Source: Euglena gracilis
Lineage: Eukaryota
NCBI GenBank assembly: GCA_039621445.1
Contig: CP154954.1
Coordinates: forward strand, 47,161,847-47,225,846
Direction: 5' to 3'
DNA length: 64,000 bases
The notes beneath the pieces are model-generated. The model was not told the origin of the DNA. It worked only from the letters and a program-made list of their open reading frames with translations, and did not search any database. Shown piece after piece: positions 3,239 to 39,895 of this stretch. A program made the position numbers and the translations under genes. Each line of letters begins with the position of its first letter. Position 1 is the stretch's first letter.

Positions 3239-6200
3239 AATGGTGGCTGAAAAATGCCCCCCCAGCAACCTGCCAACTTATAAAAGATGGAATTCAACCC
3301 CCCTGGGTCAAACCACCAAAATTATCCACGCATCCAAAAACCAGAGCCAACCTAGATCTGAGACAGGCAGAAAAAATCCTGTTGGATTACGAAAAATCTG
3401 GGTCCATAAAGAGGGTTCAGGATTCAGGAACCCAACATCTAATTCCCTGGTTCCTGATATCAAAACCAGATGGGGGGCAAACGAAATGGAGGTTCATCAG
3501 CGACTGCAGGGAAATAAACCAAAATTTTCCCGTGAAAGCTTTCAAATTAGATCACATTCAAAACATTTTCCCAGTTTTGGAGAAAGGCCACTGGGCGGCC
3601 AAAATCGACCTGAAGGACGCATATTTTCACATTCCAGTGAACCCAACCCTAAAACCCTTTCTAAGGCATCAGGTGGGGGGACAAACCTGGGAATTCCAGG
3701 CAGGCTGTTTTGGCCTAAATGTGATGCCACAAATTTTTATGTCAGTCATGAAGACATTCGAGAAACGTTGGAGGAAAAAAGGAATCCAGGTTTTTATTTA
3801 CCTGGACGACATTTTACTGGTTGCCCCCACTCAAAATACATTGCAAAAAGACTTGAACAGGGTTGTAAGAGACCTAATCGACTCGGGGTTCAAAATAAAT
3901 GTCAAAAAGTCAACCTTGGAGCCCACACAGGTCGTAAACCACTTGGGCTTCCAGTTAAATTTCCAAGAGGGAAAATTACAAATTCCCCCACAAAAAGTGA
4001 AGACAATAAAAAAGGAGCTTGGGAAAATAGTGAAAAAAGATTTCATGTCGAAAAGGCAGTTAGCTGCCATTTTGGGTCAAATCAGGTGCAACCTCATGGC
4101 CCTGCCTTTTTTAAGGGCTTTCACAGACTCCCTAACAAGATTTTTGGTAAACAAGTCTGCAGCCCCATGGGATTCAAAGCATTCCATTTCACAGGAAATA
4201 AAAGCCCAATTGAGGGAAATAAAAAATCTGCTGGACTCCTGGGGGGGCAGACCTTTCCCCCAAAATGCAACAAGGGAGTTGCATTCAGACAGCAGCACCC
4301 ATGCCTGGGGGGGGCTGGACATTCACACTGGAGAAGTTGTCCAGGAGTTTTGGAGAGAAAACTCCATTTTACATATCAATGTCAAAGAATTACGTGCAGC
4401 CATCAGCACAGTGAAAAGTCTAAGCAGGCCAGGGGAAACGGTGTCCCTTTCAGTAGACAATCAGGTAATTTATTATTACCTGACAAAAGGGGGGGGCAGA
4501 AAAGACCCTTTCAACAGCCTTCTAAGGCCATTTTTCAAATGGTGCATGGAAAACAATTTAACTCTACAAGTGAAATGGGTTCCTTCACAGGAATGCTTAG
4601 CAGACCCCATAAGCAGGTGGGAGTCAGACAGGGGGGATTACTCACTGGACCCCCAGCTCTTTCAATGGCTAAGGCAGCATTTCAAAGATTTCATAAATTT
4701 GGAAACAGATTTATTTGCCTCCCCAGGCAACAAAAAACTGCCCAATTTTGTGGCCCGATGGCCCCACTGGGAGGCCAGGGCAGTGGATGCCCTCCAATGT
4801 CCCTTGGACAACATGGGGGGACTTTATGCAAACCCCCCCTGGTCAATCATTCAGCAATTTCTCCCACGATTGAGAATGTTTCCCCAGACCAAAGTTTTGA
4901 TGGTCACCCCCTTTTGGGATTCAGCCACATGGTGGCCCCAATTAATAAAGATGAAAGTGCCAGGAACCCCCTGCCTGAAAATCACCCCCTACAGGGGCAT
5001 GTTCAAAAACTGCAGGGGGGAGAAAATGCCACCCCCCAGATGGCCCCTCCTTTGCATGATTTGCTCAGGCAAATTCTGGAGGGGAAACAAATTCAGAATA
5101 AAACCATTGACGATTTCCTGGGGAGAAACCCCAGCTTAAAGCGTTATCAAAGCGCTTTTACACTTTTATGGGTAATCTTGGAAAAAATGGGGGTACCCCC
5201 CCCTGAAGCCACACCTGACCAAGTGGCTGACGCTTTGATACAATTATTTCAATTTTCCAAGTCCCAGGCCCGTAATGCCTACAGTGCAATGCTTTTGATT
5301 CCTGGGTTTGGTGGACTGAGATTCCACGCCATGTTGGCACCTTACAAGAGGCTCTGGAACCAAAATCTGGAGAAATATGGTGCTTTTTGGGATCCCCTCC
5401 CAATCCTCTTGGGGCTGGCCCAAGCCCCCTTTCCCACTGATATTTGTGCATTACGTACACAACTTATTTTTTGCTCACGAATCCTCTGTTTATACAGATC
5501 TTCAGATTTGGAGAGGATCAAACGTACCACCAGTGTGTTGGGCAAGGCGCCCTACATCAAAATCAGGCGTAAAGGCCAGAAATTCCATAAGTGGGAAAGA
5601 GTTGTGTCCATTCCACAATGCCCCAAAATAAGCCCATTTCATTTGATGATGTCTTATGTTGCAGCAACAAGGTCATTCGTGAGACCTGGGGGGCCCCTTC
5701 TGATTTCACTAAAACCCCCCTTTAAGCCCATAAGTGCAGACACCATTGCTTCCATAACAAAAGATTTTTTGGCCAAACATGGGGTGCCCCCCCAGGTGTG
5801 GGGGGCCCACTCCACCAGAGGAGCAGGAGTTGGTTTACTCAAAAAATTGGGCCTTTCTGCCCAAGAAGTTTGTGAAATTGGTCAGTGGAGGGGGGTGGAG
5901 GCTTTTACAGCCCACTACCAACGACTTGGTGCCCAAGGTGCCCTGGAAAATGCCCTGGCCCCCCTAATTTCAGTGCACAATCAGGCCTCACAAGGGCAAA
6001 GTGCGGAGCCCGAGGTGTCTCGTACTCCCTCGAGGAAAACCGACAAGGGAGGAAGGGACACCGAGGGCGAAGCACAAAGACCTTGTGAGCCCAACCCCCC
6101 CACCCATAAAAGAAAATTTGTGTTCAAAAGCCCTCGGTCAGAAAACGGGGGCCAGGGGGGGGAGAGGGGGGGGACCCCCCCCAGGGGCAAGAAGCCACGT

Positions 6201-6263
6201 CGCCAAGTCGGAGCAGCATCGTCAGCCAACTCCGGCGAGGCGGCACTAAGCAGGACCTCCTAA
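2136..6263 (+). CDS. DIRS tyrosine recombinase (domain about 5050-5950, at the end of a 1375-codon open frame)
   Basis: Catalytic residues R (LYRSSDL), K (RRKG), HSTR, GQW and HY are all present. Confidence 0.9.
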   Translation: MKWGRNWKFAVDVNYLEQLSPRQPDDLEVQTTCGEPWPPLPPRSQFQKFPSRKPHPVTATACGPQWPERPEGRRNPQPSSTAWALGPNQARGGRSRPQDSTDTFHNGAQPPDHNSNRSGEDGIKAKVEAMVANSRSNSLQEEGEKVCHIPPTFLTQQPLSRGGRGGTGAPPDFMWSWRPMSNSAPWRGNQGQGGQSLNHLHGHGGQEVQGHGGHYLQGQGGQNSQGHGGQRGGPEMAPQKLRCQPYIKHLQPQEDALERAKEDEGVNPPNHLILPMEGEIKGGTLSGPPMVCRQTTRRTRWSREPVRERVSACTPPHPLHQTPGAPKVVKCPTTPNQPPQNHLIADVNSMEEKWGGHPPAPETAKKSKMVAEKCPPSNLPTYKRWNSTPLGQTTKIIHASKNQSQPRSETGRKNPVGLRKIWVHKEGSGFRNPTSNSLVPDIKTRWGANEMEVHQRLQGNKPKFSRESFQIRSHSKHFPSFGERPLGGQNRPEGRIFSHSSEPNPKTLSKASGGGTNLGIPGRLFWPKCDATNFYVSHEDIRETLEEKRNPGFYLPGRHFTGCPHSKYIAKRLEQGCKRPNRLGVQNKCQKVNLGAHTGRKPLGLPVKFPRGKITNSPTKSEDNKKGAWENSEKRFHVEKAVSCHFGSNQVQPHGPAFFKGFHRLPNKIFGKQVCSPMGFKAFHFTGNKSPIEGNKKSAGLLGGQTFPPKCNKGVAFRQQHPCLGGAGHSHWRSCPGVLERKLHFTYQCQRITCSHQHSEKSKQARGNGVPFSRQSGNLLLPDKRGGQKRPFQQPSKAIFQMVHGKQFNSTSEMGSFTGMLSRPHKQVGVRQGGLLTGPPALSMAKAAFQRFHKFGNRFICLPRQQKTAQFCGPMAPLGGQGSGCPPMSLGQHGGTLCKPPLVNHSAISPTIENVSPDQSFDGHPLLGFSHMVAPINKDESARNPLPENHPLQGHVQKLQGGENATPQMAPPLHDLLRQILEGKQIQNKTIDDFLGRNPSLKRYQSAFTLLWVILEKMGVPPPEATPDQVADALIQLFQFSKSQARNAYSAMLLIPGFGGLRFHAMLAPYKRLWNQNLEKYGAFWDPLPILLGLAQAPFPTDICALRTQLIFCSRILCLYRSSDLERIKRTTSVLGKAPYIKIRRKGQKFHKWERVVSIPQCPKISPFHLMMSYVAATRSFVRPGGPLLISLKPPFKPISADTIASITKDFLAKHGVPPQVWGAHSTRGAGVGLLKKLGLSAQEVCEIGQWRGVEAFTAHYQRLGAQGALENALAPLISVHNQASQGQSAEPEVSRTPSRKTDKGGRDTEGEAQRPCEPNPPTHKRKFVFKSPRSENGGQGGERGGTPPRGKKPRRQVGAASSANSGEAALSRTS
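3178..5139 (+). CDS. DIRS pol: reverse transcriptase - RNase H - DNA N6-adenine-methyltransferase-like domain
   Basis: IDLKDAYFH, FGLNVMP, YLDD; RNase H HSDSS..WG, HINVKELRA, VDN, ADPISR; MT DLFAS..N and LYANPPW. The frame is open from 3178 with no ATG near its start. Confidence 0.93.
   Translation: MPWRKSGGGTPLHQRLQKSLKWWLKNAPPATCQLIKDGIQPPWVKPPKLSTHPKTRANLDLRQAEKILLDYEKSGSIKRVQDSGTQHLIPWFLISKPDGGQTKWRFISDCREINQNFPVKAFKLDHIQNIFPVLEKGHWAAKIDLKDAYFHIPVNPTLKPFLRHQVGGQTWEFQAGCFGLNVMPQIFMSVMKTFEKRWRKKGIQVFIYLDDILLVAPTQNTLQKDLNRVVRDLIDSGFKINVKKSTLEPTQVVNHLGFQLNFQEGKLQIPPQKVKTIKKELGKIVKKDFMSKRQLAAILGQIRCNLMALPFLRAFTDSLTRFLVNKSAAPWDSKHSISQEIKAQLREIKNLLDSWGGRPFPQNATRELHSDSSTHAWGGLDIHTGEVVQEFWRENSILHINVKELRAAISTVKSLSRPGETVSLSVDNQVIYYYLTKGGGRKDPFNSLLRPFFKWCMENNLTLQVKWVPSQECLADPISRWESDRGDYSLDPQLFQWLRQHFKDFINLETDLFASPGNKKLPNFVARWPHWEARAVDALQCPLDNMGGLYANPPWSIIQQFLPRLRMFPQTKVLMVTPFWDSATWWPQLIKMKVPGTPCLKITPYRGMFKNCRGEKMPPPRWPLLCMICSGKFWRGNKFRIKPLTISWGETPA
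5984..6089 (+). repeat. DIRS internal complementary region (ICR)
   Basis: 5984-6019 is the reverse complement of 1845-1880; 6020-6089 is the reverse complement of 6315-6384. Together they encode the circle junction gtacga|gacacc. Confidence 0.93.
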
Positions 6264-6384: not shown

Positions 6385-9233
6385 TTTTGCATGATCAGCT
6401 TGAACGAATGGTCACAGCTCCGTGCCAAAAAACGGTTATGATCCGCCTATTCCGGCAAAGAAAAGCAGTAAGAAACACCAAAACCAACACCAGAAAAAGA
6501 CAAACAACAGCCGGAAAGAAGAGCAAGACCTCACCGGGGTCTTGTGCGGAGCTGTCCCCTGCAAATGGGGTTCATCCGTAAGTGAACCAAACCATTTCAA
6601 CCGTTTTTCTCTCTGCCTAATTGTGCCTAATTTTGGGCAATGCCTGAAATTGTGATGATGAAGGTTTTGCTCGCAGAAAATGAATTTCTTTCGAAAAACA
6701 AGCGCCCTAAATTCAACCTTTCTGCAAAATAACTATCCTGGTTCTCATGTGAGAGATGACGTGGGCAGAAACAGTGGCAGGGGCAGAAGTTTATGTGATT
6801 GTCAAGAACCTCCCTCCCGACTGGTTGGACACGTCTGGACAGTGGTGAGATTCTCACAAAAGCGATGATGGTGTTGGGATCTCTTGGTGTTGAAACATCT
6901 CCCAAACCAAAAAAAGCATCTGGTCAGAAACAACAAAGAATTCACTGGAAGGGCTGCACGAGAAAGCCCCAAACCGTTGCTTGCCGACCATGGGGGGGGT
7001 TTAACGACCGGGACCCCCACCCACTCACTTTCCCCCGAAAATGGCCGAAAAATCGCAAAAAAGCTAAAAATAGCACCTTTTCAAAAAATTTCAGCGCCAA
7101 AAAAAATATCCCACCCCAGGGGGGGGGGGGCTTGGCCGGACCACACCATTGCTGGGCGACCCCTGAGGGGGGGGGGGTCACTTTCCGCTCCGAAAAAACC
7201 AGTCAGTTACTTTACTCCCGGGGGGGGGGGGTCGACCACTCTTGAATTCGCTTATGTTGGCAAGGCACCATGGTGACGCAATGAGATTGGAGGTATGTTC
7301 TCATATGTGGCCCTCGCCCAATTTGAGGAAAAGGAGGCAGAGTTCAATCAGAAGAATGGTCACACAAATGTCCTGGAGTTTGCCTATTCCTTCATCATGA
7401 ATCAGTTGCCAAAAACTTCCAAAAAATTTCCGGCACCTTTGGCGCCAAGCCAGCCACTTTTTCATTTTCATGCCAACCCCCACCCCCAGACCGGACAGTC
7501 ATTCACTATTCCGAACCATACATCTCTCTAAGGTTTTGCGAACCCCCCCCCCCCGGGGGCGGCTGCAGTCAGCCCCGATTTGGGCCCAGCCCAGCCGCCC
7601 TCCCCCCGGGGGGTGCTGCTACCCTGATAGCCAGCCCCTTTTTGGGGGTCCAGCCCAAAATTTTTCGGCGCAAAGCGCAAGTTTTTTTTTGAAAAACTGT
7701 GTTCAAAAGTGGCCAAAAATGGGGTTTGGGGGGCGTTTGGGGCATTTTTTGGGGGTTTCAGATGCATCATTTTTTCAAAACTGTGTTCTGCAGGACATTT
7801 TTGGGCATTTTTCTGATTTCACTCCAGCTCGCCCCGGTTCGCGTCCAGCCGGGGTCCAGCCCCCCCACCCCCCCGCGGGGGGCGGGCTAGCCAGCCCAAA
7901 TTTCTAGCCCTAGCCCAGCAACCCCCCCCCGGGGTCCTGAAAAAGATGTATGTTCCGAACCCCCTCGGGCAAAAAATGGTCCATTTCGGCTGTTGTCGGC
8001 TGCGGGAAAGGTGGGAGCGTATTTTTGGGAACGGGTGGCCCTACCCCCAGGCCCTGGCAGGTTTGGCTCCGGGTGTGGGCACTGGGGGTGCCCCATGGTT
8101 GTGGTGCTACCAAAGAGCATGTGGAGGGTAGATGCATTTCCTTTTTTTGTTTTTAATCACAAATTGTGCTGCTTTCAACCACACATCCCCCCTGGTGGGG
8201 GGGGGTCGGCTGGACCCCCCCCCCCCGGGGTCCAAGGCAAAAAAAACCCCTGATACGCACACACATCTGTTTCTGTTGCCAAAGAAACCCCACACCAGCT
8301 GACAAAGAAGAGGTGAAGAAGACCCTGTTGGCCAGATGGAAATGAGCAGAGGTCAAATCAGAACCAGAGCTTCCAGGCTGGAATGCAGGTGGGTTTCTTC
8401 CTCAGAACTGGGAAAAATATTCGCACCGAGATGAAGGTTTTTTCTTGCAAAATCCTGGAGAATCGGAGCCAGCGTGTCGCTGAGCGACCCCCAAGGTGTT
8501 CCACACGAAAATTTGGGCTGGCTGACCCCCCCAGGAAGTGAGAATTGGCCAACTGGGGATTGAACCAGGAACCAAAAAAATCGAAACTGCACAATTTTTT
8601 CAAACTGCCAATCTTTTTCCACCCCAAATTATGCCCTGACCAGCTTTCTGAGCCACTTTGTGCACAATCACCGTCCAGCCGTCCCTTGGGTGTCTGAAAC
8701 TCATCAATTGGAGGGGGGGCTGGCTGGTTGGACCCCCAAGGGGGGGATGGGCGGCCCGTCGACCATTGACCTGATCGGGGCAGGTTGTATGGTTTTTTTT
8801 TGGTGAAAACAAAACCAGCTGGCCATCATTGAAAGCTCTGGGGCGACTCGAAATGGGAAGAGAGAAAGGGGGCAAGTCAATGGGTTGAACCCAGGGATGT
8901 GGAGGAGGTTGCAGGGATGTGGAGGAGGTTGGTTTAGGGCCCACAATTAAATCAATTCTCTGCAACTGTTGCTGCACAGTGAAGAAAAATTGATAATTTG
9001 GTCCAATGGGGTTCATTGGACAAAATTATTCGGCAAATCCCACTAATGAAATGGTGACAAAGTTGAAGTCCGAACTAGGGGGGGGGGCTGTGCAGGAAGG
9101 CCTGGTGAGGTGTAGACCCCAGGCTTCTTTTCACCAACGCCGGGGGGGGGGGTTCCTTGTGCTGAGGTGCCCCAGCAGGCACCCCCCCCCCCGGGGGTTG
9201 GACAGAGAGAGAGGGGTCCCCCACCCCTGTGGG

Positions 9234-9827: not shown

Positions 9828-12001
9828 CCTGTGGGGGAGGGGGTGTGGTCAAAAATATCTGGCGCTTTGCGCCGGAAAAAAAGCCAAAACCTTGCCAGGG
9901 GATCATAAAAACCCACAAGGGCTTTGTGTGTTTCAAATTTCGAACATTTTCCAAAAATACCAAAACATCAACAAATGTACAACATGCTTAAAAATGGAAA
10001 AAAACCTTTTTATATATTTTCTGGCGCGCAGTGCGAAAGAAAAACTTTGCTATCTTTAGACGTGCTTGGATTTTTTGAGGGGGCAGGGGCGGGGGGGGGG
10101 GGGATGGGCCAGCTTCTTTTCAGGAACCCCAGCCATTTTCCAAAAATTTTCGGCGAACCCGCCTCTGGCCTGGGACCCCCCGGACGGGGGGTTCCCAGGC
10201 TCCAGACCAGTCGAGACTTCCCCCCCTCCCACCCAGGGGTTTTTTAAGATCGGGGGCCCCACCAGGGTTTGACGTAGAGCTGGAGACCACCCCGGCCCGG
10301 CCCGGGAAAATCGCTCATTTTCGGCTCAAAAACAGTTTTTCTGGGTCGGGGAGGCCAAAAAACATCGTTTTGGGGCCAAAAAAATTTTTCGATTTTTTTC
10401 GACTTTTTTTTTTGACCGGTTTTGACCCAAAGTCATGGGTTGGTGGCCCAAAACGGGGCGCTGGCGGGTCGAAAAACGCTCATTTTCGGCTCAAACACAG
10501 GCTTTCCGGGTCCGGGAGGCCAAAAAACATGGTTTTGGGGCAAATTTTTTTTTCGACTTTTGACCCGGTTTTGACCCAAAGTCAATGGGTTGGCGGCCCA
10601 AAACGGGGCGCCGGCGTTTTCGAGATATTTTGAATTTTTCGATTTTTTGACCCCAAAATCACCCTGCAATTTCCCCAGAAAAAAAAAACGGTAGACAACT
10701 TTTTTGCTCGGGCCATATCTCCGGACTGGCGGGGAGTTACGGGTAACCGAAGGTCTCTGGAGAAACTAGGGACCCTCTCCTAACCTATGGGCTATTCACT
10801 TTGGAGGCCCGGAAATCCAATCACATCGATAATCCTCGGGGGCCATTGCCTACCCAGGGGGGGGGGCGGGGGGGTCGGACCCCCCCGTCGCCGGGGTGGT
10901 AAGCTTCGCTCTTACTCTAAAGAGATAAGAGCTCAGCGACCCCCTCCCTGGGGGGGGGTCCCGGGGGACCCACTCAAAAATCGCGAAAAATTCCAATAGC
11001 ACCTCTTTCAAAAAATTTCGGTGCCGAAAAGTATATCCCACTCCCCCCTGGGGGGCTTGGCCGGACCCACTCCCCCCCCCCGGGTTCCGCGACTAAAAAA
11101 AAGCCCCTGCTCCTACCTCGAAACTGAAGGGGGAAAATTTTCGGTTTTGTGGAAGACCTGGACACCACGTCGGAAGGAAAATTCGCAATTTTTGGAACTA
11201 TGGGGGGGGTCCCCTCCCAACACCCCGGGGGGTCCGGACCGTACCATTGCTTACCAACCAACCGGGAGAGGTCACTTTCCACTTTCAAAAAAACCAGTCA
11301 GTGACCCCCCCTCACTGCCTCAAAACCGAAGGGCTTCCCATCTATCCCTGCCCAGGGGGTCCAGCCCCAAACCCAACCATCTCCCGGGGGGGGGGGGGGT
11401 GTTCTGACTTAAAGACACCTGGTGGGGGGGGGATGATTGGAGACACAAGGATGTTGCAGATATTAGAAATGTCCGGAAGCTGGACTTGAGGTTTTGTGCG
11501 ACCCCAGAGGTGAGTCAGTGGTGAAAGCAGCAAGATTCTGTTTGAGGACACAGAGAACCTGTGATCCTTTTGGCTTGCATGGGCATTGAAAGAATCCAAG
11601 CTGTAAGCTGAAGAAAAAAGGTCAGATGAAGAGAAAAGGTTGGCTGGCAGGCTTGACCAAAAATACCCAAAGAAGCCAAGCTCAGTTACGTTTTACATCA
11701 AAATTTTGGGGTGAACCCCAAACCCTCAAAACGAAAATTGATTGGCAAACCACCATTTTGACAATCATATCTAAACTTTCCATGCTAAACACCGAAAAGT
11801 TTCGGCTCATTATTTCCAAACAAATTATGGCGAGAAAGTTTTTTCTCCAGAAGCAGTTTTGCCAAACAGAATCGGGGCGTGGAGTCACATCTCTATGGCC
11901 AGTGGAGTCAAGGGTCACGGATTACATTGACTTTGGTTCGTCGAAGTCAACCGGTTCAAAAGGGTCAAGCTGGTCAGGTATCGGTCGCGCGAATCCGTGA
12001 A

Positions 12002-15000
12002 TTGGGAACAGAATCCGCTGGATTTTCCAGAAAAAAAATGTTAACAAGATTCTTTCTTTCAGAAAAATGTGATGTTTCCATTCATGCAGACCTCTGGGGA
12101 AACGCAGAGGACAATGGAATCAAATGCCTTTTTGTTTTCAATCAACCCACCCACCCAAAACCCTTGCAAAAAAAGTCTTCCGGCCAAGTGGACAGACAAT
12201 GCGGGACCATGGTGCATCCAATCTTTTTCTTTTGGTGGGGGAGGGTTCCAACAGGATTCTGGGTATTGGTGTCCGTACCGATTCATGCCACTGGGCCCAT
12301 ATGAAGGTTGAAAGCCGTCGTAGTTCTCAGCGGGCGGTGGGGGTGTGGGCAGACATTCACTTGGTGTATATCATAATGTCGCTGTGATGTGCAAGTGATA
12401 CACAAATTTCTTTGTGGTATTGCCTTTGGCCCTTCTTGTCTGTGTGTGTGGAGGTGGTCTTCCGAGTGAAAAATATGTCGAAACTGTGATCTTTGATATG
12501 CACTGGCCCCCCAAAAAATCAAAAAGACAATAAAAAAGGACAAAAAGTTTGGTATCAGGAACAATTGGGCCCAGATCATACCATTGCTTGGCGACCCCCC
12601 CCGGGGGGGTCACTTTCCACTCTGAAAAAACCAGTCAGTCACTTTACCCCCCCCCCCCCGGGGGGATCAGCCACTCTTCAGGAGCAATGAAATATTGCCA
12701 AAAAGTCTCAAAAAATCGAAAAAATTTCCGGCGCCTTTGGCGTCACTTTTTCATTTTCGGGCCTACCCCACCCCCCAGGGGGGGGGGGGGCTCTTGGCCA
12801 AAAACCAGTCAGTCACTCTGAAAAAACCAGTCAGTCACCCGCCGGGGTGGGGTAGGACAGGTGTTGAGCAATGGTGTGGCCCAGATCAAATCATTTCAGA
12901 GAAACTCAAGAAATTGCAGGGAACAAAAAACGTGTCGCATTTTTGTCACCTGCTTTTTTCGTGATACACATTTAATGCACTAAAATTTTGGTGATATATG
13001 TGATGCACAGTGATACACAATTTTTTTTGCTGATGCAATAAATGAACGTCTGGGTGGGGGTGGCGGGAGCATGGTGCCAAAAGACTCCGGCTCGGTAGGG
13101 TAGCCAGACACAGGACATTGCGAAACAGCCAAACAGGCAAGAAAGAAAAGAATTTGCAAAAGAAGTTTCGCACATGCCCTGGGAACTGTAATATGATGAG
13201 GGATCCTCAACTTGCGGTGGGGCACCTTCAAGCCTTGGTCTTCCCCTTGCAGGACGCGGCTTGCAAGCGGCAAAAGCAATCCAGATGCCCTTCCCAGAAT
13301 ATTTTTCATGACCTTGAGCTGTAGGATCCAGGCTTCTGAGATGAGGAAATCATTCTACGAACAGAAAATATGGGGTGAAGATGGACTGCGCAACCAGCAA
13401 CCTGAACCATCCGGTTTGGCCAAAGAAGCTTTTGGTGGAAAAAAAGTAAAATGTCGCCATTTGTGGGGAAGCGATTGAATTGTCACTGTCAATCACAAAT
13501 AAAACTTGGAAGCCACCACATTCTTGCTCTTTGTTTGGAAGAAGTTTCTTCTTGAATTTTTTTTAGAATTTTCTATCAAAATGGTGAAGCCTTCTGCAAA
13601 AGGTCAAAAGGCATTTACAGGAGCCTGGTTGGATCCATCACATATCCATGCAAAGCGACCAAAGCATGAACTGCACTTTCAACAGAATCCATCTTGATCT
13701 TTTGCAGACAGGTGCTTGCAGTTGATTCCTCATACAACCAGGAGAAAGGCAACCCACCCATTTCGAGAACCAAAGGTTTCTGTATAATTTTGATTGTTGT
13801 CATCTGCACCAAGGTTCCTTCAAGAGAAAGACCCCTGGTGCCCCCCCCACCCTGGCTGACCAGGGGAAGGTCCCAAGGGGGAGGGGAACAACCCACCCAC
13901 CCAGGGTGGCGCCCCCCCCCGGGGGGGGGGGGCGGGGACCCCCCCCAAAATCGGGCCCGTTAAAGGCAATTTTCAAAAACTTTCGGCGCTTTGCGCCGAA
14001 AAGGTATACCCAGCGCCTCCGGCGCGGGACCCTCCCCCCCCCCCGGGGGGGTCCGGCCCAGACCCACCCACCCACCCCTCCCCCCGGGGGGGGGGGGGGG
14101 GTCAGGTGACTTAAAAAGAAGCCGGGAGGGGAAGGGGGAGGAAACCACAAAAAAAGAAGTTTCAAGTCCAAGTGAGAGTCATGGCACAAAGTGGGCCACC
14201 ATACCCCACCATGTGCATCTGGCTGATAATTTTTCCGAATCATCATTTTGTTGGCACATCGGGGGACCCATTAAACTGTTTGAGTGCCCGAAGGGAATCA
14301 ATTAAAAGTCCCCAGGGGGGGGGATAAACCCCCACACCCCCCAAGAATGGGGGCCCCACTTATTCCATGTGTACCCAGCGAATGTGGTTGGACAATTAGG
14401 TGCTGAAGGATCCGACCAAAAAATCGGTGGAACACGATTTTTTCTAAAAAGGCTTGGAACGCCAGGGAGGGTGCCCAAAGGGCTTTGTGGACCCCGGGGT
14501 TCTCACCAGAGACAGGGTTTGGAGTTTTTCTTGGTTATTCGTGGAAAGCGTGGGAAAAAATATTTTGACCCCCCCCCGCATACACTCTGCCATTACGGGA
14601 GTCAGATGGGAGGTGGGGGGGTCGGGTCGACCCAGGCTTGGGAATGTCGGAGGAGGGGGGTGGGGGGACCCCATTCCAAAACCAGGGGGTACCACGTACC
14701 TCCTGTCTGCGGAGCTTCCCATACAACACTGACCCCCTATGACACCCACTCAAAGAAAATTCCCTTGGTGCCGAAGGAAAACTTTGACCAAAAATTCGGC
14801 GCCCCCGAAAATAAGGCCTGGGGGTGGGTTGGACTCCCCCACCACCCACAGGTTTGCGGGGATCCTTGTGCAGCTGTGGGTTGACCCGGCTGGCACCCGT
14901 AGCAAGGCAAAAAAAAAGCCCAAATCCAACCAGCCTGGTTTCCAGCCTGATTCTTGAGTGGAAAACCAAAAAAAATGGCCAAAAAAATGGCAACAAGTTA

Positions 15001-17273
15001 TTTTTGAAGTCTCTTTCCAAAAAATCCCACAAACTTTCGCTGCGGGAGCCAAATTGCTGCTCAACACACAGATCACTTGATTTGGGCTCGGTGTGTGCTG
15101 CTTCTGAGCACTTGCCTGCTTGTGGCCCTGGTGTTGTCTGTCTTGAACAGTTCACAACTTTGAACAGCACCATACTGCCAAAACAGGGAAGCCAAAGCCT
15201 CAGGATCCAAAGGAATGTTGCAAGATATGTGCAGCGTGTCGCACGGTGGGCGGATGTGATCGAAGTTCCTGCTCTCTGGCTTCCGGAAACGATGCATGTC
15301 AGAGTTGCTGAAATCTTGGGTAAGACCATCGTCCTCTGCTCCTGTTGACATCAAATAGGGGTGATGCAACCAGACTGATATTTTGGTGCTCTTTCTTTCC
15401 AACCGGCCTGCCCGAGTCAGGAATTTTCTTGCGGAATCTCCTGGGGGGAGAGGGGGGCCAGCTGGAAAAAGGTGCTGGCTGGACACCCCGGGGGGCTGGC
15501 AGCGGCACTCAGTGGGTACCCCACCCAAAAGCAGGCAAAAAAATCCAAGTCTGGCTGGGCCTGTTGGGTTGGAAAAAAAGGTGGGGTGGGCTCCCCTCCA
15601 GTTTTCACATTTTTTTGCAGTGACACCCCGGGGGTTTGTATCAAAAGCCATTCAAGTGATTGCATCGTTCCGCCACCAGAATGCGAGGAAAGGAAATTCC
15701 ACTCCTCGAAAGTTAGGGACTTGACTTGGAACAGAAATTGATCCAAAATGCTGACCAATCTCTGACAAAATTCGAAAACTTGGGGTGAATGAGGGAGTGG
15801 GATTTTACGCTTCAAATTTTGGTAAAACTCCAAGCCTGACTGCAGGCTAAAAGTTATGCTGCATGCCCAAGACCGATTCCCCACCACAATTCTCAATAAA
15901 ATTTGGTGAGGGTCGCAGAGCGACGGAAGGGTTGGCAGCTGATTGTGATAAAAACCGTCAGGAAAACGCTCATCACTGATCAATTGTTGCCAGAAAAAAA
16001 CCCGGAAACCCAGAATTGAGACCAGCCTGTGCGTGACCAGCTGACTTGGAGAATCTTTCCGATGAGAGGGCATCTGTTCAAGTTGGTGAGTGCCGACCAG
16101 GCTTGGCTGGAGTCCCGGACAATTGACAGCCATTCTCACCAGGTCAATCTATTCTCTTCTTATTTTCTTTCCCCCCTATCCTCTGTCTTTCCTACGCTTC
16201 CTGAACAGCTTTTTCACCTTCATGACATCTCCTGCTGTGCCAAATAAGTTGAACAGTATCTGTGGCGTTGCCCTTTCATCCACATTTTTAACCCACAAAA
16301 CACGTTGATAAGAAGTCGCTGGAGGAGCAGGATACAACTGTGCCTGCTGTTGCCACATTTGGCTGCCATCATCTTGCGGTTGTTGTGGTGGTGGTGGCTG
16401 ATAGGTCATGGTGCTGGATGTTCCGTAGGCGGGTTGCATTGGTGGAGGAGGAGCTGCTGGGGGAATTCCAGTGGAAGCCATGGGATAAGCTGGAGGTCCC
16501 AGGGCACCTGGCGGAGTTGAGAGCAAGGACGGTTGTCCCTGGTTCTCAACTGTGTAATCCTTTGCACACAACTTTGCATCAATGGAAGTTAGTCTTCAGC
16601 AGACGCCAACTTGCACTGTTTGATTTGAAAAAATAAAATGTATTCAGAAATCAAAAGGCTGTGAGTTGGCGTTTGACCGGGAGAATTGAATCTGCATGTG
16701 GCAAGATCCAGTAAAAATGTGTTTTCCATTGAACTGCTCTTTTGCGGTGGCAGCTTCTTGAACACTCTCCATCTCCACAAAGCCTTGAATTTGTCCATTC
16801 TTGGGTGATATTGCAACTTTCCGCACTCGTCCAGCCATGGAAAACACTTGGTACAAAGTGTCAACATCCACGGGATGAAGGAGCAGAGTGACCAGGACAA
16901 ATAGAATGTTGTTTGGAGGCGTTTCATGCAAATCAGTGTGCAGTGTCAGATTTTGCCTGTCCGAGTACACAACCTTTACGTGCTTCCCACGTACAATGGT
17001 GTTGCCTCCGGTGTTGTGCATGAATTTTTGGGCTGACTGTAGGGAAGCAAACTCGACGAAAGCCTCCTTCTTGTTCAACAGCTTCAGGATATTTGTGACA
17101 ACACCAAAAGGTGCACATGCAGCATTAATCTCGGAGTCAGTTGCATAGTCTGGTAGGTGGCGGAAGTAGAGTACCCGGCTTGGACTACTCATCAATCCGG
17201 ATTGCCCAAACCTATCGCCAGCCTCTGCAGTAGGTGGTCTTCTCACACCGCCAGGAACGTCATTCAGGAACAT
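12002..17273 (-). CDS. Polypyrimidine-tract-binding / hnRNP-L-like protein, 4 RRMs, about 559 aa, 9 exons
   Basis: Exons 17273-16679, 16594-16196, 16134-16033, 15365-15122, 13699-13631, 13323-13185, 13105-13056, 12344-12265, 12003-12002 sum to 1680 nt in frame. PTB-like motifs: PSRVLYFRHLP, PPNNILFV, GSCHMQIQFS, LTQDFSNSDMHRFRKPESRNFDHIRPPCDTLHIS, IKMDSVESAVHALVALHG. The intron 2 boundary is uncertain. Confidence 0.88.
12004..12264 (-). other. PTB intron 8, 261 nt, nonconventional, splits the stop codon
   Basis: accCAGaatcctgttgga / tccagcggattCTGttccc stem; the join reads caa t|aa. Confidence 0.72.
12345..13055 (-). other. PTB intron 7, 711 nt, nonconventional; decayed copy of the tgtatcac hAT-like element
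   Basis: CAGacgttcat / gtgaatgtCTG 11-bp stem; TSD relic cccccacc / cccacacc; both ends homologous to the elements at 20758 and 37447. Confidence 0.85.
12577..12878. mobile_element. MITE with 8-bp TSD nested in PTB intron 7
   Basis: TIR cataccattgct / agcaatggtgtg; TSD gcccagat at 12569-12576 and 12879-12886. Relatives (aaaaccagtcagt motif) near 7140-7240, 11240-11310 and 30650-30960. Confidence 0.85.
13106..13184 (-). other. PTB intron 6, 79 nt, nonconventional
   Basis: tccCAGggcatgtgcgaaac pairs with gtttcgcaatgtcCTGtgtct; joins in frame. Confidence 0.8.
13324..13630 (-). other. PTB intron 5, 307 nt, nonconventional with 7/8 TSD relic
   Basis: aacCAGgct / agcCTGgatcc; 8 nt before CAG = gatccaac, 8 nt after CTG = gatcctac; restores MDPTAQ..GKGIWIAFA. 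Confidence 0.82.
13700..15121 (-). other. PTB intron 4, 1422 nt, nonconventional, contains nested repeats
   Basis: aagCAGgcaagtgct / agcacctgtCTGcaaaa (11/12 paired); joining gives TRATIKMDSVESA (RRM4 RNP1 region). Confidence 0.82.
15366..16032 (-). other. PTB intron 3, 667 nt, nonconventional
   Basis: gcaCAGgctggt / atcagtCTGgttgc stem; joining gives WSHHPYLMSTGAEDDGLTQDF, which matches the PTB RRM3-RRM4 linker. Confidence 0.85.
16595..16678 (-). other. PTB intron 1, 84 nt, nonconventional/intermediate
   Basis: ggtCAAacgccaact pairs with agttggcgtCTGctgaa (11/12). A 1-nt slide gives GT...AAG and the same mRNA. Confidence 0.8.
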
Positions 17274-17376
17274 TCAGCGACCTTTCGCCTTCAAGGAAGA
17301 AGAAAAATCATTGAAAAAGGGTTGTAGTAATTCCTAATTCCCACACACAAAAGAACTTTTCTGTTCGAGACCAAAG

Positions 17377-17826
17377 ATGGCTGAGGAGCAAACTCCAGCG
17401 CCCGCAGAACATAAAGAGGGAACTGCGAACACCATCAGTGTTAGCTTGCAGCGATCTCCTGTGTTCTATGCTAACCTTACGAAGCGATTCCTTCATGGTT
17501 CTCCTTCTTTTTTTAAAGGACTGCAGACAATTTGTTTTGTTTTTTTAGGTGGTGAACTGGAAGTCAAGCTTACAGGTTTAGGTGATGCCACCACAACCGT
17601 TGTTGGTGCCTGTGAGATTCTCAAGAGACAAGAAGGGTTAGTCACGGTTTGCTTCGGAAAGGAATATTTACCACGTCAAAATTCCTCTTGCCTGTAGGTT
17701 ACAAAGGTTGAAACTTCGCTCTCTGAGCGTGGTCAAGCACGCTTGATGGTTGTTGTTACGAAGGGACCAAAGTTCGATGAGTTGGACAAGGACCCAGCGG
17801 AGAAGGGGGAGGCAAAGGCGGTATGA
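17377..17826 (+). CDS. Alba-domain DNA/RNA-binding protein, 115 aa, two 51-nt GT-AG introns
   Basis: Introns 17498-17548 and 17647-17697. Spliced protein NTISVSLQRSPVFYANLTKRFLHGGELEVKLTGLGDATTTVVGACEILKR..VTKVETS..ARLMVVVTKGPKFDEL is typical of eukaryotic Alba. Confidence 0.9.
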
Positions 17827-18441
17827 CACTGTAGTTACGTCACCATCCTTATGAATTTATCTTTCAGGGCGCTGAGAAGGACTCCACAGGTTTGCAACTC
17901 TGTGACACGGAAACTTAAGAATTGGGATTTTTTCCAAGTGGTATTTCTTCTTTTCTTTGTGCAACATCCATCGGTCACTCAATTCGATGTTGTTAATTGA
18001 AGAATTTGGCCCTTTGACATGAATACACTGTGCCGGAATTTCCAGCATTTTTCCAGCACCTCCGAAAAGTGCCAAGAGCCACAGGAAAAGTTGCCTCCAC
18101 AAATGAATGAATTCAAGAAAATTTGAGTGAAAAAAGAGTTGATCCATTGAACAACAAAGGAAACTGAATTTTTCAGAAAAAGAAAAAAATTTGATGAACG
18201 TTGGACAAAAAATTTCTTCCCATCTTTTTCCCCATCTCAACACATTTTCCCCTCCTTGTTGGGAAGGGACCAATTGTGCAGAAGAAGGGCGCAAGGAATT
18301 CTTCTTCGACAAATTTTGTGGTGCTGGCAGGCACTGAATTATCCCCTTCACCCAACGACCCTGACACCTGGCCAAAATCCTCTGCTTTGCCCGAGTGACG
18401 TGATGGCACTTTTTTTCGCTGATTTTTGTGCATAAAAAGCC

Positions 18442-19574: not shown

Positions 19575-20735
19575 AAAACGTGCCCAACCACAGATGCCCT
19601 CCCCTTTTTTTCCGCAGCCCTCCCACTGTGGCTAAACGCACGGCAAACTTTGTGAATGGTCTTTTGCCACCTCCCCCTAGGACGGAACTGTTCCTGGCTG
19701 CTCTCGCGGTATACCAGCAAGCTTGCTGTTGCTGCCAACTTTTTGGAGTTCGCCAAACTGTGTCAACATCGGCAAGCTTCTTATCCTGAGCTGGATGCTT
19801 TGTTGCCTGGACGGGATGGGAGCAAGGAATTTCTTAAGCCGGAGGGTACCCTACCCCCGGGGGGGGGGTCCAGCCAGCCAGCAGCTCAAATCCAGCCAGC
19901 AGCCCAAATTCGGGCTGGGAGCCCCCCCCCCCGGGGGTCGAGTGAAATAAAGTCGGGTCCAGCACGGCCGGAGGCCGGGCCAGCCGGCCGCAGGCCGACC
20001 AGCCAACTGGGCTATCCAGCTCACTTATCCCCGCATTTTCCCCCCTCATCACAGCCCCTCCATCGCAGCCCCCCAGCCTTGATCTAGCTCCACCCATCAA
20101 AATGTCGAAAATGGCAAAAATGTGCAAGAAAATTTTGTTTTTCCTCGACCCAGCCCAGCCCAGCCTGCTCCAGCCCCGGACCCCCCCCCCCCACCCCCAC
20201 CCCCCCCCCGCGGGCGGGAGCAGCCAGCAGCTCAAATCCAGCCAGCAGCCTTTTTGCCAGCCGGAGGCTGGACCCCCCCCCCCGGGGGGTCCTTAAGAAA
20301 TTCCCTGGATGGGAGCTGGAACCCACCCTGTTGTTCGATGAGGCAAGCGTCATTGAACAATGTGTGGCTCAACGTGCGCAGCAGTCGGGAACTTTGTTCG
20401 TTTCAGGGAATCGTTCGGCAACCTCTTTTCACACATACGTGAATGCCGTCGCTCGGGCATTCCGCAAAACAACTACCGAGGGAGTAGTGTTGCCTTCCTC
20501 AGAGCGCCAATTCCCCCATTTCAACGAGCTGTTTTCGCGTTCCCTGGAGCGCGAACGCGCGCGGAAGGCAGTGTCAACGGTGGTGTTGTTTGTGGTGTTG
20601 CCATTCCCAAAAATCCAAATTGTGTGGAGCGTGGTGTGTGACGCCTGCGGTTTGGCATATCATTTTCATTGCCAAGCTTTGCGGCGGCCACCAAAGTATG
20701 GCTCTTTTTTGTGTAAAGCGTGTCGTGTTCCGTGA
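19575..20735 (+). pseudogene. Degenerate coding relic ending in a PHD-like finger, probably TE-borne
   Basis: VVCDACGLAYHFHCQALRRPPKYGSFLCKAC at the end; frameshifts upstream; interrupted by the element at 19823-20307. Confidence 0.45.
19823..20307. mobile_element. MITE with 8-bp TSD (CAA...CTG ends)
   Basis: TIR caaggaatttcttaag / cttaagaaattccctg; TSD gatgggag at 19815-19822 and 20308-20315. Confidence 0.88.
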
Positions 20736-20757
20736 TGTCGTGTCAGAGTGCTCCAAG

Positions 20758-23521
20758 CATACCTCCATTTAGTATGTATCACCAAATTTTTTTTACGTAT
20801 CACATGTATCACGGCCTAAAAATTAATGTATCACATTTGTATCACCAAAAAATTTTTAATGTATCACATATGTATCACCAATAAAATTATAATGTATCAC
20901 ATATGTATCACCAAAATTTTTCATAAGAATTTCCTTTTTTACATCAAAATTTCTGTTCCGCTTTTCATCCTTGTTTCTTTGCCTCTCTGCAGACAAATGG
21001 AACATTTTTCTTGTGATAATGCTTTCGGCAATGTGTTACGACTCACCAATTCGGCAATTTTTTTTTCCAATTTGTAGTCGGGATTATAGTAATTACCTCC
21101 CCCCCCCCTGGGCGCTTGGCCCCCTCCTCCTTACATGCAAACTTGGCCCCCCTAAAGTTGCCTTTTGGCCCTTTGCACATGGCCGCCAAAATTCTTAACA
21201 TGCAAACTTGGCCTCCCTGAGGTTGACCCCATGGCTTTACCTTCAATCATGGCCCGGGTCAAGCGCCCGGGAGGGGGGGAGGTAAACCCTCCCCCCAAAT
21301 AACACCCCCCAAATAACACCCCCCCCAATGATACCCCCCACACGGGGTCTGACTTCGGCCACCGAATTAATACCCCCCAAATCTCGGGCCGACGACCCAG
21401 ATTTTGACCTGAAAAGTTGGGTAAAAATAGCAGTCTCTGATAACAAATTACGAAAAATTTCGATTTTTCTTGATCATCTCGCCTCCAAAAAAAATGCTAA
21501 ATTTTATGAGAAAGCACAAAAAATGACCCCAAAGGAGGTTTTGGGTGCTATTTTTTTTGGGACTTACGGGACTTCGAAAAATTTCGAAAATTTTTGGGAA
21601 ATAATACCCCTCCTCAAGTAATGCCCCCCCCCCCCTCGGGGGACTTCGGGCGAAAAAATAATACCCCGGGTATTATTTGGGGGGGGTTTACTCTTGGCAA
21701 TGGTTCAAGGCTGTGTTTATAGCAACATGGCTTTGGTCAAAGTCTGTGTTTCTAAACACAGACTTTGACGTGCCGAAGTCCGTGTTTAGAAACACAGACT
21801 TTGACCTAAGTCTGTGTTTCTAAACACGGACTCCGACCAAGAAAACTGTGTTCACAAATACTGTGAACACAGTTTTCTTGGTCGGAGTCCGTGTTTAGAA
21901 ACACAGACTTAGGTCAAAGTCTGTGTTTCTCGGAGTATTTGGACCCTGAAACATCCCAATGATGCAGAAATAAAGGACTTTGGGGGGGGTCAATTTTTGG
22001 GCTTTGGCGCCTTCGGAGCCAAGAGAAAATGGCCCCTTTGAGGGGGGGGGGAACAAATTTGCCAAAACGGCCATTGTGAGGGAGGGGACACTTGGGGGGG
22101 GGGGTCAATTTTTGGGCTTTGGCGCCTTCGGCGCCAAGGCCACTTGGGGGGGGGGGGACAAATTTGCCAAAACGGCCATTGTGAGGGAGGGGACACTTTG
22201 GGGGGGTTAATTTTTGGGCGCCAAGAGAAAATAGCCACTTTGAGGGGGGGGACAAATTTGCCAAAACGGCAGGGAGGGGACATTTTGGGGGGTCAATTTT
22301 TGGGCTTAGGCTCATTTGGCGCCAAGAGGAAATGACCATTTTGAGGGGGGGGCCAAATTTGCCAAAAATTTTGACCATTATGAGGGGGGCACTTTGAGGA
22401 GGGTGAGGGTCTTTTTTTCTGTCCCAAGTGGCCTAGAGGGTGGCTCCCCAAAAATATCACCATACAAGGTTAGGTTAGGTAACATCTGTGCTCATCAACT
22501 TTTGGGAGCCTACCAAAGAAGTCATGGATCGTGGGTGCAGCGCCCGGAGCATTCTCATCAACATTGCAAAGTGAAGCACGCAAAATGGGGTATGCAAAAG
22601 GAAGGAGACGATGTAATCTTGTGTCATTTCTTCACATATGTTCCCATGTTTAACGGTAATGTTACCACTATTTCGAAAGGATTCTACCACCCCCCCCCCC
22701 CCTTTATTGTCCCCCCCCCCTTTATTGTCCCTGGGCCCCGGCCGACGGGGGGTTTTTTTGGCCCGGCCAATGAAATTCCTTTGGTACCCCTTTATTGTCC
22801 CCCCCCCCTTTATTGTCCGGTCGGGCCTCCTGGGGGCAGGTCGGTGGGACAATAAAGGGGGGGGGGGGTGGTAGTTCGGAAGACCACAGACGGCGGCCAA
22901 AAGCTGCCCGGCGGACACATTTTCTTATTCTGAAACCGTGTTTGGGCCGATTTCGAGACTTTAAAAGTCTTAAATCTTCGCCCAAAACACGGTTTCAAAC
23001 AAGAACAGTGTTTTGGGCCAAGGTTTTAGGGGGGCCCAAGGCGCGGTCCCCGCCCCTGGGCTCCCCCTAACTCTTGGCCCAAACACAGTTCTTGACACAG
23101 AAAAGGTTTCCGGCGTCCCAGAGCTGTGCAGCGGATCCTAATTCAGCTTCGCTTTGTCCCAAAAATCTGTCGTCAGTCTGCCGTCCGTCGTCAAGGTTGA
23201 GAAACACAGACTTTGACCAAAGCCATGTTGCTTTATAAACACAGCCTTAAATAACTGCGTTTCGAAACGCAGACTCAGGTCAGAGTCTGCGTTTAAGACG
23301 CAGTTCTTGATATGGAGGAATTGTTGTCTCGGAATCCTGGCTTCCGCGTTTTGAAGGTTCCCTTTGGAAGGAGCGGCTGAGAAGTTGCTGACAAAAAAAG
23401 ACAAAAAAATTTGTGTATCACATGTGTATCACCAAATTTTTTTTAACGTATCACATATGTATCACCAAAATTAAATTAATGTATCACAGATACGTTGTGA
23501 CTCGCACTAAATGGCGGTCTG
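20758..23521. mobile_element. Non-autonomous hAT-like element (tgtatcac family) with nested insertions
   Basis: TIR catacctccatttagt / actaaatggcggtctg; TSD gctccaag at 20750-20757 and 23522-23529; subterminal tgtatcac arrays. Confidence 0.92.
22685..22873. mobile_element. TA-flanked MITE (Tc1/mariner/pogo type)
   Basis: TA-ccacccc..tttattgtccc / gggacaataaagggg..gtgg-TA; a relative lies at about 18607-18760. Confidence 0.75.
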
Positions 23522-23825
23522 GCTCCAAGGCAACGTCTAGCCTTCTGTTGTGTTGTAGAGTGCCCCCGACCCGCCTCACTCGTTGAGGACCACCTCGGCC
23601 TCTCAACCTCTCGCCGATTTTTCATGATAGCGATTTTTGCTTCTTGCTCGGGGTTGCCACAGATGCCTTAATGGAAAACGTGCCTGACCACAGATGCCCT
23701 AACGGAAAACGTGTCGTTGCCACAAATGCCCTAATGGAAAACGTGTTCATGACCACGAATTGCAGGGCAGGCATTTGGCGGGCTGAACACGTTTTTAAAT
23801 TTTTCAAAGGAATTTTGACTATAGG

Positions 23826-39445: not shown

Positions 39446-39895
39446 TTGTTGATTCATGAAACTGAAATTCCTGAAACAAGACAATTGGGATTGTATCTGT
39501 CTGTTTGAACAGCTGCCAAATTGCCCCTCAATCGAAAGGTTCTTTTATCTGACAACCAGCAATGGCAACTAAATCTGGCCACATTGTACAGAATTCTTAT
39601 TCTGGAAACTTGAAGTTTCAGAAAATGAAATGGCATATCTTATTTTCAGCCAGTTGTCAGCCCGGAATAGCCAGATCATCCATCTGACGGCAAGTTTTGT
39701 CTCTGTCAGTCCAAAATGCTTCCGAATCCCATAGGACCCAAAATTTCGAAAAAAATCAGAATCCGAAATGTCCAAAATTTCACAAAGATATCCCAATTTC
39801 ACAAGCAACAAATTTCAATGTCTTTGAAATCGACCTGACCCTAAAACTAAACGGGCACTGTCTTGGAAATCAACTGACCTAAACAATTTCTATAC

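Follow-up and report, generated by a model that had tools for sequence, protein, structure and literature searches.

A nonconventional intron of the Euglena gracilis PTB gene with ends related to those of hAT-like transposon copies

The PTB gene and its 711-nt intron

Our analysis concerns a 64,000-nt stretch of the Euglena gracilis genome (assembly GCA_039621445.1, contig CP154954.1, positions 47,161,847 to 47,225,846 of the forward strand; the whole stretch is called the window here, and positions are counted from its first letter). It carries a gene for polypyrimidine tract-binding protein (PTB) on the minus strand and, outside that gene, two transposon copies that we call A and B. The subject of this report is a 711-nt intron of the PTB gene whose two ends are homologous to the ends of A and B. 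Exon 1, the minus-strand open reading frame (ORF) 16647-17273, has a translation with 100% identity to P0001, the 561-aa "polypyrimidine tract-binding protein 1/2" of E. gracilis (deposited under two GenBank accessions), and P0001 was mapped by tblastn onto the minus-strand exons of the window. Every cut that reproduces P0001 was then enumerated, junction by junction, which gives six introns of 84, 667, 1422, 307, 79 and 711 nt. The nonconventional (NC) splicing code that has been defined experimentally in Euglena consists of 3 nt, CAG ... CTG and 5 nt, with a purine first in the acceptor exon and pairing beside CAG and CTG (PMC12501133). It fits five of these six introns, and the sixth, of 84 nt, is a GT-AG intron. 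The parts of the 711-nt intron and the exons that border it are as follows (TSD, target site duplication; TIR, terminal inverted repeat; MITE, miniature inverted-repeat transposable element):

13056-13105, minus strand: upstream PTB exon, ending ...ESFGTMLPPPP
12345-13055, minus strand: NC intron of the PTB gene, 711 nt, made up of the element between spacers of 3 nt (13055-13053) and 5 nt (12349-12345)
12265-12344, minus strand: downstream PTB exon, ...PPPPAENYDGFQPSYGPSGMNRYGHQ; 3' limit predicted
12350-13052, minus strand: probable transposon-derived element, CAGAC...GTCTG, 703 nt including a nested insert, with end homology to A and B
13053-13060, minus strand: upstream copy of the TSD (gene strand: CCCCCACC); the mRNA retains its variant base, at position 4
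12342-12349, minus strand: downstream copy of the TSD (gene strand: CCCACACC), which matches the upstream one at 7/8 positions
13040-13052, minus strand: 5' TIR arm, part of a 13-bp RNA stem
12350-12362, minus strand: 3' TIR arm, part of the same 13-bp RNA stem
12961-13017, minus strand: four TGTATCAC-type subterminal motifs near the 5' end (element positions 36, 46, 55 and 85)
12395-12402, minus strand: TGTATCAC subterminal motif near the 3' end (element position 651)
12579-12877, strand not assigned: nested later insertion, an unrelated high-copy MITE with ends ACCATTGCT / AGCAATGGT and an 11-bp direct repeat GGCCCAGATCA at 12568-12578 and 12878-12888

Read on the plus strand, the layout is GGTGTGGG, CAGACATTCAC ... 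GAACGTCTG, GGTGGGGG, with the element at 12350-13052, and the end strings quoted in a preliminary description of this DNA are present where that description put them. It had also recognized a 7/8 TSD in the flanks, and GGTGTGGG (12342-12349) and GGTGGGGG (13053-13060) do match at 7/8 positions, a level reached by 9 of 2,809 8-mer pairs in a local null from the same G-rich flanks and, window-wide, by 66 of the 63,279 8-mer pairs that lie 711 nt apart. The length of the intron, 711 nt, is that of the element (703 nt) plus 8, in other words the element and exactly one TSD copy. The nested insert, previously placed at 12577-12886, is real and has its 11-bp direct repeat, but its boundaries are 12579-12877. 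This MITE contains C-run/G-run palindromes and the summed DNA contig depth over it is very high; relatives of it lie at 7136-7243, 11230-11305, 30613-30721 and 32565-32616.

All six cuts that are compatible with P0001 at this junction remove 711 nt, and none of the six registers has GT-AG or GC-AG borders. The register 13055..12345 reads ACC-CAG...CTG-CCCAC and the next exon starts with A, so that CAG occupies +4 to +6 and CTG -8 to -6; the 711-nt intron is a typical euglenid NC intron, with no structural difference, and its exact RNA cuts would be those of this register. Across the junction P0001 has eight prolines and no threonine, and the mRNA therefore retains the upstream TSD variant at the fourth base. 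RNA depth falls inside the intron: in the X21 RNA reads, both directions summed, the bins 12302-12735 and 12736-13169 have depths of about 8 and about 17, against about 83 in the bin 11868-12301 on one side and about 51 in 13170-13603 on the other. Loss of exactly 711 nt from the transcript is consistent with the deposited protein and with the RNA-seq depth, in agreement with the earlier claim that the segment is spliced from the mRNA of a conserved PTB gene. Taking out the intron element and one TSD copy restores an open stretch of 194 aa (the window background has a median of 150), and the same excision of A or B leaves open stretches of only 108 and 94 aa. In the DNA run X1, the contig 11441-12473 spans the left junction at a depth of 135, which is like that of the other single-copy contigs (100-163), so a common empty allele is unlikely. 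Among the other introns of the gene, removal of intron 2 is confirmed by X19 RNA contigs that join 15365 directly to 16033, and removal of introns 4 and 5 is supported by RNA contigs.

Relationship of the intron ends to copies A and B

Three other members or ends of this group were found in the window:

20758-23521, plus strand: free copy A, 2,764 nt, tip mutated to CAT; perfect 8-bp TSD GCTCCAAG at 20750-20757 and 23522-23529
37447-39445, plus strand: free copy B, 1,999 nt, both tips (CAG...CTG) intact; perfect 8-bp TSD TTGTTGAT at 37439-37446 and 39446-39453
31761-31774, minus strand: element C, a fourth related end, with the same TIR pattern, the T7 T8 variant of the intron and different subterminal repeats

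Copies A and B begin with CATACC or CAGACC followed by TCCATTTAGTATGTATCAC and terminate in ...AAATGGCGGTCTG, and their shared sequence amounts to about 800 nt in the left part and about 200 nt in the right. The TSD of 8 bp, a length found in the hAT superfamily, is perfect in both and 7/8 in the intron. The end of element C at 31774 is CAGACTTTCATTTA, after which comes an A8T4CCG block, AAAAAAAATTTTCCG, as in B, but its subterminal repeats are of the GCGGTGCAC type; its partner end was not found, a candidate at 30424 being without a matching TSD. Over the body of A (bins 20548-23585) the X21 RNA depth is 0-2 per strand direction, with about 4 in the bin just left of it and somewhat higher values in X24; the PTB exons, for comparison, have 40-120 per direction. 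Read mapping covered A, and B lies outside the mapped stretch, so this evidence of low RNA is evidence about A.

The intron element is inverted relative to A and B. When it is put in their orientation, its first 100 nt or so are collinear with B and comprise the TIR, a TGYATCA motif, an A8 tract and TGTATCAC-type repeats. The ends were compared by tip-anchored gapped alignment against 500 dinucleotide shuffles, in which the five tip bases CAGAC were held fixed for the 5' end. Against B the 5' end gives z = 6.3-6.8 and outscores every shuffle (0/500 as high) at each of the lengths 50, 80 and 120 nt; for A the z value is 4.6-6.4, again with 0/500, and blastn finds 69.6% identity over 102 columns (E = 9e-7). 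The 5' end of the intron had been said to align with the left end of the free elements, and with 0/500 shuffles and about 70% identity over about 100 nt it does. The corresponding claim for the 3' end and the right end of the element also holds, with 26/38 identities to B and 25/38 to A without gaps (8 of 12 mismatches are transitions), the gapped test being weaker (see below). Only 3 of the 2,228 CTG sites on both strands have at least 23/35 identities upstream, and these are B, A and the intron itself.

The subterminal motifs and TIRs point in the same direction. Exact TGTATCAC occurs 24 times in the window (21 on the plus strand and 3 on the minus), and every occurrence is inside A or B (plus strand) or the intron element (minus strand). 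With at most one mismatch the intron has five in the sense orientation and none antisense, no more than 92 nt from one tip and no more than 53 nt from the other, and these five stand in the same order and orientation as in A and B; the background at this stringency is 19 matches in 58,534 nt on two strands. The TIR pattern CAGACNTNCATTTA, with at most two mismatches allowed, has 13 matches where 3.78 are expected (0/100 shuffles reach 13). A, B and the intron each contribute both of their arms to this number; the 5' arm of the intron has no mismatch and its 3' arm has two.

The intron resembles A or B over no more than about 100 nt at one of its ends and about 65 nt at its other end. Since there is no internal match, while A and B share about 1 kb with each other, the intron is a relative or a member of a sister subfamily and not a copy of A or B; judged from these alignments, the element appears to be a short, divergent relative of the two, about 70% identical at its ends (over about 100 nt at the 5' end). 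The preliminary description had called it a recognisable decayed copy of the free element. Its membership in the same family is upheld by TIR, TSD and subterminal repeats, but "decayed copy" was an overstatement, given the lack of internal similarity. A search of metagenome contigs for the TIR-plus-motif pattern returned 91 stretches, about what a rough, uncomputed estimate gives for chance, and none of the 91 has two or more GTATCAC within 200 nt.

Splicing offsets and the origin of the intron

The splicing offsets of the NC code, 3 and 5 nt, sum to 8, and A, B and the intron element all have TSDs of this length. Removal of 3 nt, the element and 5 nt is removal of the element and one TSD copy, and the pre-insertion mRNA is therefore restored. 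No "conversion" of the element is required, because the TIR tips and the 8-bp TSD already match the splicing code. Thus, where the preliminary description saw direct evidence for conversion of a transposon into an intron, we retain the family-level kinship in a conserved gene, but not the conversion step. Among 842 CAG...CTG pairs in the whole window with at least 7/11 complementary bases, there are seven whose 8-bp flanks agree at 7/8 or more positions when read in the correct register (one of the seven sits in a C-run), and registers shifted by 1-6 nt give 1, 2, 1, 2, 1 and 1 matches from the same pairs. A strict scan (at least 9/11 Watson-Crick TIR bases) leaves 57 pairs, of which one, copy B, has an 8/8 flank match. 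The scan at 7/11 also has CAG...CTG pairs with complementary ends at 35333-35651, 60293-60489 and 10234-11109, with 8-bp flanks that match 8/8, 8/8 and 7/8, respectively; they are candidate members of the same superfamily.

A second intron of the PTB gene has the same construction:

13324-13630, minus strand: second PTB NC intron, 307 nt (intron 4), with a 7/8 8-bp TSD, GATCCAAC / GATCCTAC, around a CAG...CTG element at 13329-13627

In an X19 RNA contig with a loose end at 13631, the downstream TSD variant is present at TSD position 6 of this intron. The two imperfect TSDs bracket the register: the 711-nt intron retains at least four upstream TSD bases and intron 4 at most five. If both introns share one register, then four or five upstream TSD bases are kept; the published code predicts five.

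The events that would account for these facts are as follows. A short, non-autonomous DNA transposon of the cut-and-paste type, which shares its family but not its subfamily with A and B, would have entered the proline-rich C-terminal coding region of the E. gracilis PTB gene and duplicated 8 bp of its target. In the pre-mRNA its TIRs would pair as a 13-bp stem flanked by 3 unpaired nt (5') and 5 unpaired nt (3'), which is the geometry of the NC code, and cuts at the NC offsets would take away the element with 8 nt, one TSD copy, and give back the pre-insertion sequence and frame. Such an insertion would have been intronic from the moment of landing, and an unrelated MITE could later have become nested inside it without harming removal, since only the ends matter. 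We consider it likely that this explanation, a hAT-like non-autonomous transposon insertion removed by NC splicing, is correct as a whole; we infer that insertion into DNA came first, and the element is called hAT-like from the length of its TSD, its TIR and its subterminal repeats, an indirect assignment to superfamily.

Several observations weigh against this explanation. The 3' end is modest in the gapped test, where the numbers of the 500 shuffles that reach its score, for B and A respectively, are 5 and 15 at 50 nt, 10 and 8 at 80 nt and 44 and 130 at 120 nt, and the interior of the intron has no similarity to A or B at E <= 0.01. The comparisons cover one 64-kb window, in which the intron's own subfamily is represented by the intron alone. 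The hAT transposase domain is absent from the eight long window ORFs that were scanned with Pfam, and CAGAC matches four of the five positions of the hAT tip consensus, which we take to be YARNG, and departs from it at the fifth base. The read-level joint of the 711-nt intron is not among the best-supported 15 of 628 joints, so the exact junction rests on the deposited protein and on binned depth. Finally, the window's PTB haplotype may be aberrant or misassembled at 16120-16193: in this part of the coding sequence the window has 74 nt in place of 19 other letters that are found in an X1 DNA contig and in RNA (an X19 contig, 222 X21 reads and 27 X24 reads). The window version is out of frame, and P0001 requires DMALLEF there; the allele in the window is divergent or defective at this place, or else the assembly is wrong.

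This oddity of the window allele, the missing joint among the best 15 of 628 and the fact that RNA reads show at least two expressed alleles (for example 16094 C/T and 15166 A/G) could all be taken to mean that the element is not spliced at all, and that the mRNA and the deposited protein come from an allele or paralogue that lacks the insertion. We think this very unlikely, since the X1 junction contig at a depth of 135 among neighbours at 100-163 speaks against a common empty allele, the element has every feature of the NC code for which it was tested, and the gene has four other NC introns, with RNA that confirms removal of intron 2 and supports that of introns 4 and 5. A search for an empty orthologous site, in which metagenome contigs were scanned with a PTB alignment, matched 319 pattern stretches, none of which encoded a relative. 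At this site the transcript-derived PTB orthologue of E. longa (98% identity) carries prolines in a run of about the same length, which is uninformative on the presence of the intron there.

A different challenge is that CAG...CTG and paired ends are demanded by the splicing code and do not reflect common descent with A and B. Other PTB NC introns also start with CAGG..., three end with GTCTG (intron 2, intron 3 and the 711-nt intron), and the GT-AG intron (intron 0) has GTCTG just inside its 3' end; none of the other PTB introns is in the family. However, the similarity goes beyond the code: the tip is followed by CATTTA, the A8 tract is at the same distance and there are five TGTATCAC-type motifs in one orientation, and none of the 500 shuffles reaches the 5' score even with the CAGAC tip fixed. 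Among 131 GTCTG sites the intron ranks third (21/33) after B and A, the opposite TIR arms of B (18) and of the intron (17) come next, and the highest score of any other site is 14, all of which makes convergence hardly credible. We give equally little credence to the reverse order of events, in which the intron came first and the free copies are DNA copies of its excised, circular RNA. According to published reports, NC introns are released as full-length circles (PMC11282704, PMC12501133), but A and B bear the marks of cut-and-paste DNA transposition, namely perfect 8-bp TSDs that differ from locus to locus, TIRs and subterminal arrays; they are 2-2.8 kb long, with about 1 kb in common that the intron lacks; and a copy derived from RNA should bring along the 3 + 5 spacer bases, which are not shared. 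Insertion of a hAT-like element followed by NC splicing is thus our preferred reading.

A further proposal, compatible with that reading, concerns the stem. When the 711-nt RNA is folded, positions 4-16 pair with the 3' end in 13 pairs, including two G-U, and leave 3 and 5 nt unpaired; the minimum free energy and centroid structures agree, and the fold has z = -5.26 (0/20 shuffles fold as well). The preliminary description held that the terminal 11 nt differ from the free copies yet pair fully, with G-U, and that this suggests selection on the RNA stem after insertion. The full pairing is there, but the helix has 13 pairs, two of them G-U. Both arms of the intron do differ from A and B within positions 6-8 (at 6 and 8 in both arms) with pairing kept, and the differences within the helix, in both arms, are G-U compatible in the sense RNA, so that 13 pairs are uninterrupted where B is mismatched at position 7. 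Among the first 20 positions, however, only two of four transition differences are wobble-compatible: the two in the stem amount to a one-in-four chance, and the next two, at positions 14 and 18, give A-C mismatches. The duplex formed by the intron ends has -18.2 kcal/mol, well below shuffles (-6.4 +/- 2.5 kcal/mol) but weaker than that of copy B, at -27.7 kcal/mol. Moreover, element C at 31774 has T7 T8, and its first 17 nt match the 5' arm of the intron at 15/17 positions, against 13/17 for B. Because element C already carries T7 T8, the variant TIR was probably inherited from another subfamily. Selection on the stem after insertion is therefore not shown by these comparisons, which neither support nor exclude it, and we regard compensatory change of this kind as unlikely.

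Neighbouring features and known systems

Other features of the PTB locus and the window are as follows. A 261-nt NC intron is predicted at 12004-12264 (minus strand, CAGAATCC...GGATTCTG), immediately following the GHQ codons, and splicing it out would generate the TAA stop needed for the C-terminus of the protein. Alternative acceptors in this region, CTG at 12062 and 11902, would likewise yield a stop, and all three acceptors are predictions. In the PTB 3' untranslated region (11510-11879, minus strand) 178 X21 reads depart at 11879 and continue with 16 nt that equal 11525..11510 and then with other letters; the skipped stretch has a 9-bp stem, GATTCTGTT / AACAGAATC, and fits neither GT-AG nor the CAG/CTG register. 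The adjacent gene on the opposite strand (17364-17889, plus strand) is highly expressed and has three conventional GT..AG introns of 51, 51 and 47 nt, so that both types of intron stand side by side here. A read tail, ATTTTTTTTC, before 17369, at the start of this neighbouring gene, resembles what we take to be the Euglena spliced leader. Elsewhere in the window, a 1,376-aa open frame at 2133-6260 (plus strand) has no Pfam match at E <= 0.01, 45747-46283 (plus strand) has a weak DDE_1 match (E = 0.0033, below cutoff), and 20088-20732 (plus strand), just left of copy A, has a weak PHD-finger match.

Non-autonomous hAT elements such as Ds have an 8-bp TSD, TIRs of about 14-17 nt that begin with CAG, and arrays of subterminal repeats; the autonomous members of the superfamily encode a DDE transposase that has a hAT dimerisation domain. 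The 8-bp TSD, the short TIRs starting with CAG and the subterminal repeats at both ends are also present here. In maize, Giroux et al. (1994) reportedly described a de novo intron derived from Ds, in which a hAT-type element in an exon is removed by the spliceosome at cryptic sites and imprecisely; removal is said to be imprecise there, whereas here its length is exactly that of the element plus 8 nt. Introner or transposon-derived introns are said to have been the subject of Huff et al. (2016). Such introns, known from Micromonas, Aureococcus, dinoflagellates and Fritillaria, have in common with ours that they consist of an element and one TSD, so that the original mRNA comes back when they are removed, and are MITE-like and non-autonomous, with TIRs (PMC11282704). 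Introners typically occur as many near-identical intronic copies in a genome. The difference lies in the mode of removal, since introners use the spliceosome and GT/AG or variant sites supplied by element and TSD, and here it is the CAG/CTG-plus-stem code (PMC11282704, PMC12501133). Excision as a circular RNA, later than that of the conventional introns, is a trait of the euglenid NC introns as a class. With these introns (Tessier, Canaday, Milanowski; splicing code in PNAS 2025, PMC12501133) the PTB intron shares the absence of GT-AG, the CAG/CTG offsets, the 3- and 5-nt spacers, the purine and the terminal stem, as well as direct repeats at the junctions that make the cuts "slidable"; to these it adds recognisable kinship to non-intronic transposon copies.

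The idea that NC introns descend from MITE-like elements dates from 2013, a time at which no euglenid transposons were known (PMC3935182); a paper of 2018 still put it as a question (PMC6221363), two of 2024 restated it as a hypothesis (PMC11170887, PMC11282704) and two of 2025 called it unclear (PMC12501133, PMC12621601). The direct repeats have been treated as a nuisance ("slidable introns", which were excluded) or as "TSD-like" (PMC12501133, PMC11282704). In the partial texts searched, which leave aside supplements, we found no statement of an 8-bp TSD, a hAT-type source or a free source family, and, with subscription journals also outside the search, no work that ties an NC intron to an identified non-intronic family. 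The MITE origin of NC introns is thus a published, unproven hypothesis for which the PTB intron provides a concrete family-level case. The intron itself is an ordinary NC intron; what is new is its family-level kinship and the link between the 3 + 5 offsets and the TSD.

We think there is an even chance that NC splicing is an RNA-level "precise excision" tuned to one superfamily of transposons with an 8-bp TSD and CAG...CTG ends. If this is true, insertions into exons in either orientation would be born as frame-restoring introns, and a free copy whose tips are intact, like B, would need no change to serve as an intron; most NC introns, which make up 71.8% of the introns of E. agilis (PMC12501133), would be fossils of the superfamily, and their "slidable" junction repeats would be decayed TSDs. 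The locus supplies a named family with defined TIRs, subterminal repeats and 8-bp TSD, of which one member lies within a spliced gene and others lie beyond the PTB gene, where little or no RNA is seen (the RNA evidence being that for A), and the question of a transposon origin thereby becomes testable genome-wide and by the published Euglena knock-in assay (PMC12501133).

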